From positions 2,112,001 through 2,176,000 of the forward strand of contig OZ252100.1 in assembly GCA_965248435.1 (NCBI GenBank): a stretch of DNA of 64,000 nucleotides, given 5' to 3'. Positions 475-3,400 of this stretch are shown piece by piece. A model generated the notes under the pieces. That model had not been told where the DNA came from. It saw only the letters and a list, made by a program, of their open reading frames with translations, and made no database searches. The number at the start of each line of letters is the position of its first letter. Positions within the stretch are counted from its first letter, which is position 1. This DNA comes from Candidatus Latescibacterota bacterium. Lineage in GTDB: Bacteria > Latescibacterota > UBA2968 > GCA-2709665. The position numbers and the translations under genes are program-made.

Positions 475-3400
475 CTAATTCTCTACCTCTAGTCCCACAA
501 ATAACCGGCTGTATTCATCCGTGAGTGGATCAATTTCGCTCTTATGGGCTGCTCGGGCGAACACCACCCCCGGATTTTCGGACCGCCGTGCGCGCGCCAA
601 CACGTGATAGCCGCCAGGCGCACTCTGTGTCTCCAGGTCGCGATTGATCTCCGCCATCTCCACCAGCATGTTGGCCAACCCCCATCTAGCGCCAATCGTT
701 CGCGTCAGAATCTCCTCAGCCGCCAATCCTTCCCGAAATCCGTGCTTCAACGGGATCAATCCGCCCGTTACTGTCCGCGCCGCGCCCTGGGGGGCAACGG
801 TCTGCCTCAACTGTTGCCAGCTACCGCGAGCACCAGATGCACACAGCATGGCGAGGACGCCGAAAGCGTCATCTTCAAACGACCTGAACGCCGAAAGTTC
901 CGCGACCACTTCATCCGGATAGGCCTCCCAGGCATCCAGATCGTCTCCTTTCGGAGGCTCTGGAAGACTGAGCCGTGAGCCAACAAAGGCGCTCATCGAC
1001 CCACCCGTTCCGCTGGCGGCCTCAAACCCTTTCTGCCATAATCGCTCGGAAAGGTCCAGTGCTGCTTCTGCCCCGTCTCTTGCCATCACTTGTGCCATCA
1101 GGGTAATGATGGTGTTTTTGTCGATGAACTCTCCCTGTATCTCAATCGGCTCAGCGGCGATCGCCTCGATCTGCTTGCGTCCCTCTTCCGTTGTGCTCAA
1201 GTGAGCGAGTCCGAACAGGGCATCGCTCATCGGATGCATTCTACTGCGCGCAATCAAGCTCGGGTCTCGCTTCAAATGAGCGGCTGCGGTTAGAGCGTCT
1301 CTGGCCGACTGCTGCCCCGCCTCCGTGACGGGCACGAAGACTGCGACCTGATCGCCGTCAAAATCCAGATCCATCATCTTGCAGATCGCCGGCGGGACTC
1401 GAATCGCATCCCCCTCCGCTCGTTCGGGTCGGCAGGCGACAAAGCACGTGGGAGATATGGCCGGAATACGAAACAGAATCGCCCACATCTGCGACAACGT
1501 TTCATCCAGCGCCTTCTCTGCCTTTTTCGAGCGTTTCTCCACCTCGGACGTGCCCACTTTGCGTGCGGCAAACGGGCCGAACAGCGTCCAGGCCATCTCT
1601 TCAGGCAAACCCACTCGATCGAAGCGCATTCCTGGACCCGGCGCAGCGACAGCGCGGCCGCTGAACAGCGCCTGACTCTGAAACCGAAGGTCTTCTGGTG
1701 ACAGCAGTTCGTTATAAAAAGCCTTAACACGATCCGACAGCGTATCTGCAGCCCGTTCGATAAGCACGTCGGGCGCATCGTTCTCGATCATCTGAGCCAA
1801 ACGATCATTCGCCTCCCTTAAAGACGCATTTGCACTGGAATCGCTTTCGCCGACGTGGGTCAGTGGGTGTGCGGACAACCAGGGGTGGGGCACGGGACGG
1901 GCCAGCTTCAGCGTACCTTCCGGTTTTACCGAGAATGTGGCACCTTTCTCATTCAGCGAGACGACCACACCGTCAGAAGCCAACCGCTCCGTCAATCGCG
2001 AAAACACCGGCGCAGGGGGATCGACTTGACTCACATGCCCTTCGGCCAAACGATCGGCCAGGGTATCGGCATCCTTCCGGTCCACGGAACAGGTGTTGAA
2101 AAGATCCCGGATCACTTCAGCAGCCCCCCCCTCTTTCAGCGCAAGAAATTCCATCTCGCCCAGTGACTGAGCTTGCTCTCCGATTCGTGTCCCCGCGCGA
2201 ATCTTCAGCGCGGCCAAATGTTCCGTGCGCCCCCAATAGACCCATCCCGCTGTCGTTCGACGCTTCAGCGCTTCACCGCCTACCTTCAACAGTTCCATTC
2301 CCTCCTCGGGCAGACCATTCGCCTTCAATCGTCTTTGAATCTCCTCGTCTCTTGGAGCACAGAACGGCGGCACAATCACCGGCTGGCCCTCGACCTTCGC
2401 GATCCGTCCGACGACCGCCTCACGAACCTGCCCGATATTCATCCGTGAAGGCAGGCTGCACACGCTCACAATCAGCTCCACGGCAGTTCCATCCTGCAAG
2501 GCCGGCATCTCGGCATCCGGCAGGATCCGAGACACAACCCCCTTCGTGCCGTGGCGATTGCTGATCTTGTCTCCGACCGCGATCCGGTTTGGCAGCATCA
2601 TACGATTCGCAGCCGATTCACTGATCACAATGGCATCTTCGTGCGTATCGCCGTTCCAGGCCATAAACGCCGTGAGTAGATTGTAGCCTGTCCAGAAGTA
2701 GGGATAATCCGGCTCTAATCCAGTCTGCACGAGCGCGGGCTCAGATTCCGGTTCTGCCCCGTCGTATTGCGCTTGAAACTCCTTCCAAGCTCGAAAGTCG
2801 GCGCCTCTCGTGTAGTCGTTCCAGGCCTCCAGGTCGTCTCGCGGCATATCGGGTGAGGGCGGCCCCACCCATTGCCGCATCATGTTCACGCCCATCAATG
2901 CTCGGTTCGTATCATCGTGCTCCAGAAAGGGCACCATGGAGGCTCCTAACCCCAACCGCTTCTCGGGTGCTTCGTCTTCGATTACCAGCTTGCCGTCCCG
3001 GATCGCGGCCCCCTGCGCAACCTCCAGAATCCGATTGATGTTCGGCCCTTCCGCCGTGCAATACGGACAGACACGGCCCTCGTGTGAGGCATCCAATAGA
3101 TTGGTCGCATCCCTGGCTTGACCAAGGACGGGGATGAGCGTGATCCGCCGGAGATGGGTGTGCATGTCCAGCCAATTCGCTCTCTGCAGATACTGAGATG
3201 TAGATTGGTGCTCGAAGAATTCCCGAATCCAGTCCCCCAGCGGCATCCACGTCCTTACCGATTCCGCATCGTCCAGTCCCGGAGGGAAATCCGTCAACCT
3301 TTCAGCCAGAAAATCGAGCAGCTGTTCGCCCACACAGCGAATCTCGGCCTTCTCCAGATTCAACTCCGTCGGGACCGGAATCACGGTTCGAAACAATCCG

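Follow-up and report, generated by a model that had tools for sequence, protein, structure and literature searches.

What could a second RNA polymerase, reduced to a single short chain, be doing in a bacterium that already has ordinary genes for the large subunits of its first? The question is raised by a stretch of 64,000 nucleotides from Candidatus Latescibacterota bacterium (GenBank assembly GCA_965248435.1, contig OZ252100.1, positions 2,112,001 to 2,176,000), which we call the window. Near its beginning the minus strand carries a gene for a shortened polymerase, preceded by a gene for a sigma factor of the extracytoplasmic function (ECF) type and by a promoter:

475..3621, minus strand: coding sequence of a fused beta-beta′ mini RNA polymerase, 1048 residues plus stop; database protein P0003 (100% identity)
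3662..4255, minus strand: ECF sigma factor of 197 residues, probably starting at TTG 4255
4277..4302, minus strand: ECF-type promoter, TGAACC (4302-4297), 14 nucleotides, GGTGTC (4282-4277)

We consider the chances to be about even that these elements constitute an autoregulated two-gene module encoding an active minimal polymerase that is programmed by its own sigma factor. A more far-reaching proposal, made with rather less assurance and falling somewhat short of even, is that this would be a natural orthogonal system present in at least eight phyla, in which a quarter-size, single-chain polymerase without a trigger loop uses its own ECF sigma factor through a coiled coil. Since the flap is gone, region 4 of the sigma factor would have to bind at a new surface. 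Both proposals are drawn from the comparison of sequences.

The host DNA encodes a pruned beta subunit fused to a pruned beta′ subunit in one chain. The longest open frame runs from 3771 to 475, and the ATG at 3621 is the start both in relatives and in the database gene call, with GGAGG lying 8 nucleotides 5′ to it; residue numbers refer to the 1048-residue product that begins there. An initial annotation made from the sequence had given 475-2645 as the coordinates of its observation. This span lies inside the gene but covers only its 3′ two-thirds, as the coding sequence extends to 3621. On the chain Pfam identifies Rpb2_6 (9e-38), Rpb1_2 (1e-10) and Rpb2_3 (1e-4). The ED and GDK..RHGxKG motifs define a beta-type barrel, which is matched by Rpb2_6 and by host beta in a hidden Markov model (HMM) comparison (4e-58). 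DFDGD at 753-757 provides the DxDxD magnesium triad of a beta′-type double-psi barrel, a barrel also indicated by Rpb1_2, and a bridge helix can be aligned with that of solved beta′ chains and of host beta′, as far as host residue 776. Among proteins of solved structure, beta chains match ~170-580 of the mini chain and beta′ chains ~650-990, with a best E value of 8e-47. By contrast the full domain set of canonical RpoB and RpoC is absent, and the NCBIfam equivalog models are matched only partially and below their cut-offs (185.5 bits against 801 for rpoB, and 115.2 against 963.5 for rpoC). The host retains separate, ordinary rpoB (1262 residues) and rpoC (1363 residues) genes elsewhere in its genome, and the window gene is therefore an additional, fused and strongly shortened beta-beta′.

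The length of the family is steady at about 1000-1070 residues, both in the best 120 matches and in about 80 full-length clusters at 50% identity. Its members are labelled 'hypothetical' in the source databases, PHROGs offers only the generic beta and beta′ families, and Rfam gave no match over positions 1-8000 of the window. In the full-text literature we found no published account of a fused mini polymerase linked to a sigma factor. Looking up terms in two papers on ECF classification (PMC7826278, PMC7671368) revealed none either, and their supplementary gene-neighbourhood tables may list the family.

What has been removed from the chain, and what has been kept? We mapped the deletions by comparing a family alignment of 72 representatives (A2) with the host subunits, using HMMER, BLAST and hhalign together with the Pfam domains of the host proteins. 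The conserved blocks are 34-57% identical to host beta and beta′, in HMM domains with E values of 4e-58 and 3e-44. The two catalytic barrels survive, together with the fork, switch 2, the bridge helix and the clamp coiled coil, while the flap, lobe, external-1 domain, zinc finger, lid region, rudder, trigger loop and jaw are absent. The selective pruning proposed in the initial annotation is thus borne out, with the catalytic core and the sigma-binding coiled coil spared. All on the minus strand, the parts of the chain are:

3343..3621: N-terminal family-specific domain, residues 1-93; residues 60-81 resemble host beta 133-154, not significantly (139 of 500 shuffles)
2866..3342: beta fork and NRALMG..MRQ segment, residues 94-252 (host beta 397-531 and 600-657; Rpb2_3), external-1 being cut out between
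2587..2616: flap-deletion scar, residues 336-345, where ~256 residues of host beta are missing between EDAIVISE and GDK
2008..2586: beta double-psi barrel (GDK, NRHGx) and beta C-terminal part, residues 346-538 (host beta 1028-1258, E 4e-58)
1876..1911: beta′ region-A-like motif, residues 571-582, lacking both the preceding zinc finger and the lid region that would follow
1702..1839: clamp coiled coil, residues 595-640, aligned with host beta′
1132..1701: switch-2 segment (LFSGRAV) and beta′ double-psi barrel, residues 641-830, with DFDGD at window 1351-1365
652..1131: reduced pore/funnel and bridge helix, residues 831-990 (host beta′ 556-776)
478..651: short, highly conserved C-terminal end, residues 991-1048, in place of 587 host residues that include the trigger loop and jaw

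Four stretches of host beta are retained: 397-531 (the fork and the last part of the protrusion), 600-657, 738-772 (with the ED motif) and 1028-1258 (the barrel and C-terminus). Host beta 1-396, comprising protrusion and lobe, is nearly all gone, with a weak match to a PLMT..G.F.ING.ERV segment; residues 1-93 probably represent what is left of the beta protrusion. The external-1 domain (host beta ~541-606) is missing from the chain. Only 14 residues separate EDAIVISE (328-335) from GDK (350-352), compared with about 256 between 772 and 1028-1030 of host beta, so that the flap is indeed lost; the segment removed falls within Pfam Rpb2_6. The beta C-terminal helix, at residues 538-556, aligns to the end of host beta, reaching 1258 of 1262. 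It nearly abuts beta′ region A, as had been read from the sequence: just 14 residues further on, a region-A-like motif at 571-581 matches IELAVPVSHIWF at host beta′ 101-112 (hhalign E 1e-4, probability 42-55%). There is no zinc finger at the junction, since host beta′ cysteines 54, 66, 68, 81 and 84 are unmatched and the mini chain has no cysteine between 511 and 726.

The remainder of beta′ has been treated in the same manner. From region A to the coiled coil there are about 12 residues where host beta′ has ~150, the lid sequence included. The coiled coil itself aligns to host beta′ 262-305 with an hhalign probability of 86% (E 5e-6), inside the HMM domain of E 3e-44, and is followed by a gap of ~25 residues in the family opposite the host rudder, GRRSRAVRGDGNRSLKSLSDLLKGKQG. 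Beyond the bridge helix (host beta′ 776) there are ~50 profile positions against 587 host residues, and the host motif GEPGTQLTLRTFH at 902 has no counterpart. At the level of sequence, rudder and trigger loop are therefore both missing, as had been proposed. The likeness of the C-terminal end to host region H is weak: hhalign places the two in the same register (P 0.006, probability 6%), but the score of a plain local alignment was reached by 251 of 500 shuffles.

The clamp coiled coil, or clamp helices, is where region 2 of sigma canonically docks, and the tip helix of the flap is the normal seat of region 4. That nearly all the accessory elements have been pruned while the coiled coil, the one surface known to seat sigma, has been kept argues on grounds of parsimony for a polymerase that uses a sigma factor.

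Is there a particular sigma factor for it to use? The upstream gene encodes an ordinary two-domain sigma factor of the ECF type (group 4), with matches to Sigma70_r2 (6e-18), Sigma70_r4_2 (1e-12) and TIGR02937 (108.9 bits against a cut-off of 42.9), and a linker that is conserved across phyla. Its start is placed at TTG 4255 on account of the conserved N-terminus and the ribosome-binding site. We surveyed 80 related loci taken from species genomes, calling orthologs at 100 bits or more. Their record titles name Latescibacterota, Poribacteria, Chloroflexota, Planctomycetota, Armatimonadota, Gemmatimonadota, Hydrogenedentota and a Moanabacter, so that at least eight phyla are represented. An orthologous ECF gene lies upstream of the polymerase on the same strand in 77 of them; the remaining three comprise a locus truncated by the contig end, another whose ECF gene is on a different contig, and a third that has lost it. 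No third gene family is conserved, as judged by all-against-all clustering of the flanking open reading frames (ORFs) at the 80 loci. The stop codon of the ECF gene overlaps the start of the polymerase in 34 of the 77 loci and the two are 0-30 nucleotides apart in 13 more, while the gap exceeds 500 nucleotides in 10. Within the phylum 61 of 168 genomes have both genes and 103 have neither; three have the polymerase alone, and a single one has the ECF gene alone, at a contig edge. Inheritance together with one sigma orthogroup, often with translational coupling, is a second argument for the use of sigma by the polymerase.

In one genus the locus is found in stages of decay. L082 has a clean deletion of the ECF gene with the polymerase intact, L182 has a 25-nucleotide tandem duplication within the ECF gene, and L183 has lost most of the ECF gene together with ~75 N-terminal residues of the polymerase. 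Apparent fusions of the ECF gene to the polymerase were ruled out; the long frames reflect the scarcity of stop codons in GC-rich DNA, and at the locus examined the two genes overlap by ATGA and are unfused.

Is the pruned chain still an enzyme? In the 72 cluster representatives the aspartates of the magnesium triad are almost invariant (D753 and D755 in 70, D757 in 69). So too are the substrate-binding positions: G350 and D351 are present in all 72, K352 in 66 with arginine in five more, R356 in 72, H357 in 70 and K360 in 68, while R240, N246, R249 and Q250 of NRALMG..N..RQ are each found in 71. Over windows of eight residues, conservation is highest at the active-site motifs and at a few motifs specific to the family, such as PGVVFARA. 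The ratio of nonsynonymous to synonymous substitution rates is 0.13-0.21 in all six close pairs, and the mini polymerase is evolving under purifying selection. The absence of a trigger loop is no argument against activity, because the YonO polymerase lacks one and is nevertheless highly processive according to the available text of PMC5467207. For the same reason, the suggestion in the initial annotation that the protein may make short or abortive products does not follow from loss of the trigger loop by itself.

These counts also bear on a different suggestion of that annotation, namely that the protein is a mimic of RNA polymerase that serves as the anti-sigma factor of its ECF partner, its coiled coil sequestering region 2 from the host core. 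This would explain the retention of the coiled coil, and would add negative feedback to an otherwise purely positive loop. The gene does stand downstream of the ECF gene, where an anti-sigma gene is commonly located, and the 80 loci contain no other conserved anti-sigma candidate, as had been supposed. Yet the best conserved parts of the protein are the magnesium triad, the GDK/NRHGxKG ligands and the fork, for which a decoy has no need, and ~1000 residues have been held at constant length in the ~80 clusters. Pfam reveals no anti-sigma domain or zinc-binding motif, matches at E values up to 1 being polymerase domains and one chance match. The loop would moreover be left without an output, no other target promoter having been found. 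Retention of catalytic and substrate-binding residues in 66-72 of 72 representatives is not what one would expect of a protein that does no more than bind sigma as a decoy, and we regard the anti-sigma role as very improbable.

How is the module controlled? A Shine-Dalgarno sequence and the start codon of the ECF gene follow within ~25 nucleotides of the promoter listed above. The consensus in the family is TGAACY-N14-GGTGTC, with a spacer of 14 nucleotides in 56 of 58 sites. A relaxed pattern has 69 matches on both strands of the 80 loci, and 68 of these lie directly upstream of an ECF gene, one per locus. The operon site is the best match to the position weight matrix in its own genome (24.6), where the strict pattern has three matches: that of the operon, one antisense within a 1472-residue ORF, and a weaker one. 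Of five other genomes, two have the operon site as their sole match, and the extra matches in two more are at about the level of a control with the reversed pattern; none of the five showed an excess over that control. On this sequence evidence the sigma factor appears to drive its own gene and the polymerase, with no other recognisable target.

Two further sites were rejected as promoters. The second-best match to the matrix in the genome (24.2, G000:C1:738582, minus strand) is coding, lying within a 713-residue ORF that contains CMNICPTYGV; this looks like an iron-sulphur protein in which a coding motif mimics the promoter. A TGAACC-N13-GGTGTC sequence present in seven copies is a chance match with a spacer one base short, in an IS3-type transposase ORF. 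It belongs to an identical stretch of ~80 nucleotides with seven copies in the genome, one of them around position 19083 within a minus-strand ORF (window ~18237-19447) that we take from its translation to be the transposase.

Which polymerase reads the promoter? Its two elements and their spacing have the ordinary -35 and -10 arrangement of ECF promoters. It may be that the ECF factor serves only the host polymerase in a self-switch, and that the mini polymerase is the output, working without sigma and perhaps making primers or small RNAs, or acting on single-stranded DNA or RNA templates. We consider this possible but doubtful. Several observations favour it, and in so doing weigh against a sigma-programmed mini polymerase. 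The flap tip that would receive region 4 is gone, ~256 host residues having been replaced by about 9-14, and both promoter elements are nonetheless held at a fixed and ordinary spacing, which fits transcription by the host enzyme at least as well. No second copy of the promoter was found in any of the six genomes, so that a holoenzyme using it would transcribe only its own operon; a regulon that appears to be the operon itself is what a self-switch would have. One complete genome holds an intact polymerase from which the ECF gene has been cleanly deleted, with no cognate ECF factor elsewhere. Single-chain two-barrel enzymes such as YonO function with no known sigma factor, as the accessible part of PMC5467207 indicates. 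Two further points count against our preferred reading in a more general way. The bridge helix is conserved less than the barrels (G977 in 38 and R979 in 50 of the 72 representatives). Co-variation between the ECF factor and the polymerase (mutual information with average product correction, 74 pairs) gave top pairs that are scattered, with only 1.6-fold enrichment in the bin of the coiled coil, although with an effective number of 35 sequences this analysis is underpowered.

Set against a switch read only by the host enzyme are the sparing of the clamp coiled coil when nearly every other accessory has been pruned, and the conservation of the ECF linker. The stop-start overlaps in 34 of 77 loci suggest that the two proteins are made in matched amounts, and the ECF orthogroup occurs without the polymerase in only one of 62 ECF-positive genomes, at the contig edge already mentioned.

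We therefore return to the sigma-programmed polymerase, for which the following mechanism can be envisaged. The ECF-type promoter would drive the operon, so that the sigma factor turns on its own gene and that of the polymerase. Region 2 of the sigma factor would dock on the retained coiled coil of the mini chain, and the docked factor would endow the enzyme with promoter-specific initiation. Holding the template and adding nucleotides would fall to the fork, switch 2, the bridge helix and the two barrels with their magnesium and substrate ligands, and RNA would be made without a trigger loop, in the manner of YonO. The catalytic activity, the binding of sigma and the reading of the promoter by the mini polymerase are steps that we infer.

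A potential sigma-70-like promoter, TTGGTT-N16-TAAGAT, lies on the operon strand ~30-75 nucleotides upstream of the ECF promoter in six of the 11 loci of one clade (L043, L047, L049, L051, L054 and L065), and has no equivalent in the window. It could provide the basal expression with which a positive loop would start.

How does the mini polymerase relate to known enzymes? It shares with the host core alignable barrels, fork, switch 2, bridge helix and coiled coil, and the promoter of its operon resembles those read by the host core with an ECF factor. It differs in being a single chain of 1048 residues where the host has 1262 and 1363, and in being an accessory gene. As its conserved blocks are 34-57% identical to those of the host, compared with 22-27% for viral relatives, the mini polymerase is most readily understood as having been derived from the bacterial enzyme by reduction.

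One parallel is with YonO of the Bacillus prophage SPbeta, a single chain of ~100 kDa. The available account in PMC5467207 describes an active DNA-dependent polymerase without homology to the trigger loop that is error-prone and unable to cleave RNA; it has few residues in common with multisubunit polymerases, while the mini family is plainly beta/beta′-like. YonO is carried by a phage and has no described sigma partner, whereas the mini family is linked to a sigma gene and located on chromosomes. A sequence relationship to YonO was not detected: the organisms tallied or listed in our tblastn search of phage records, which did not extend to profile comparison, include neither Bacillus nor SPbeta.

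Similar in architecture is K2ORF6p/K2ORF7p of the yeast linear plasmid pGKL2. As far as the available portions of PMC2919709 and PMC6211774 describe it, this has a beta-then-beta′ fusion of ~980 residues from which about half has been deleted, with neither lid nor rudder. K2ORF6p has also lost the coiled coil and requires a second small subunit (PMC6211774, in part). The enzyme of the yeast linear plasmid is of eukaryotic or viral origin, and uses a short upstream element and no sigma factor. The loss of the coiled coil from a fusion that works without sigma (PMC6211774, same portion) is a third argument that its retention in the mini polymerase reflects the use of sigma. The part of that 2018 paper available to us calls a beta-beta′ fusion of conserved regions unknown in other polymerases, and the bacterial family was thus unknown to its authors.

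The non-virion polymerases of jumbo phages (phiKZ, AR9), so far as available descriptions go, have reduced beta and beta′, lack alpha and omega and employ a dedicated specificity subunit. They and other viral pairs differ from the mini polymerase in having separate or split subunits, in being carried by phages and in falling into a separate clade, and the relatives on viral contigs show just 22-27% identity. The full-length fusions PRK14844 and PRK09603 have the same gene order with covalently joined subunits, but these are complete proteins of ~2800-2900 residues that replace rpoB and rpoC; the mini chain scores 180-185 bits against cut-offs of 4632 and 5372.

How widespread is the family, and has it moved? 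The polymerase is present in 64 of the 168 genomes of the phylum, in only two of 21 in its own family, and is absent from the single other genome of its genus. The copy in the window is 65% identical to copies from another family, and 51% identical to those of its own. In the tree the mini polymerases form one clade on a long stem, apart from those beta sequences, canonical and viral, that were sampled (99% in the Shimodaira-Hasegawa approximate likelihood-ratio test, SH-aLRT). The tree of the family tracks the phyla fairly well.

Such patchiness, and the greater similarity to another family's copies, would be accounted for if the polymerase belonged privately to a mobile element or to the remains of a prophage, serving the element and not the cell. 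Directly downstream of the polymerase a truncated recombinase fragment adjoins, a 147-residue ORF (window 3-416, minus strand; L007:15973-16416) that matches only Recombinase PF07508 (2e-10) and lacks a catalytic resolvase domain. It is probably a serine recombinase remnant, and a possible trace of past mobility. We think a mobile-element polymerase improbable all the same. The neighbourhoods of the 80 loci have no conserved gene of mobile elements or phages, PADLOC has no match for the mini polymerase, and the family tree follows the phyla as noted. Among phage records, 50,697 of which were searched with tblastn at E 1e-5, none of 25 matches covers 80% of the protein, and the same holds for all 68 matches in plasmid records. 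Viral contigs in IMG/VR contain relatives of 22-27% identity only, and the contig examined (L099) has separate genes for a reduced beta-like protein of 899 residues and a beta′-like protein of 1007.

If the more far-reaching proposal holds, this would be the smallest known sigma-dependent RNA polymerase, and would supply a minimal list of the parts needed for sigma-directed initiation. The textbook view is that bacteria have one RNA polymerase core; a second conserved and selected core, a single chain of ~115 kDa linked to one sigma factor, would depart from that rule. The family can be regarded as a natural deletion experiment in which the flap, zinc finger, lid, rudder, trigger loop, jaw and lobe are dispensable, and what stays is the barrels, fork, switch 2, bridge helix and the sigma-binding coiled coil. 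The seating of region 4 and the spacing of promoter elements without a flap become directly testable, and a compact two-gene orthogonal expression system could result.

Some loci carry further genes. In 13 loci of the clade nearest to the window copy (L009:1402-5958 and sister Latescibacterota loci) a conserved ORF of ~586 residues lies between the ECF gene and the polymerase; in L009 it encodes a fused ATP-binding cassette exporter. Two more genes are conserved upstream in 16 loci, one of which in L009 encodes 343 residues with a DksA/TraR-type zinc finger. The window copy has neither the ~586-residue ORF nor the two upstream genes. Just beyond the start of the window (L007:14314-15759, minus strand) there is a second, unrelated ECF factor with a fused C-terminal domain.

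Lastly, other reduced polymerases in a single chain were encountered. The metagenomic protein P0249 (1948 residues) combines alpha-like domains (RNA_pol_L and RNA_pol_A_bac) with beta and beta′ in one chain, and P0262, also metagenomic (1613 residues), is a mid-size beta-beta′ fusion in which Rpb1 domain 5 survives in part. The protein atlas has more fused clusters, of 1221-1787 residues.

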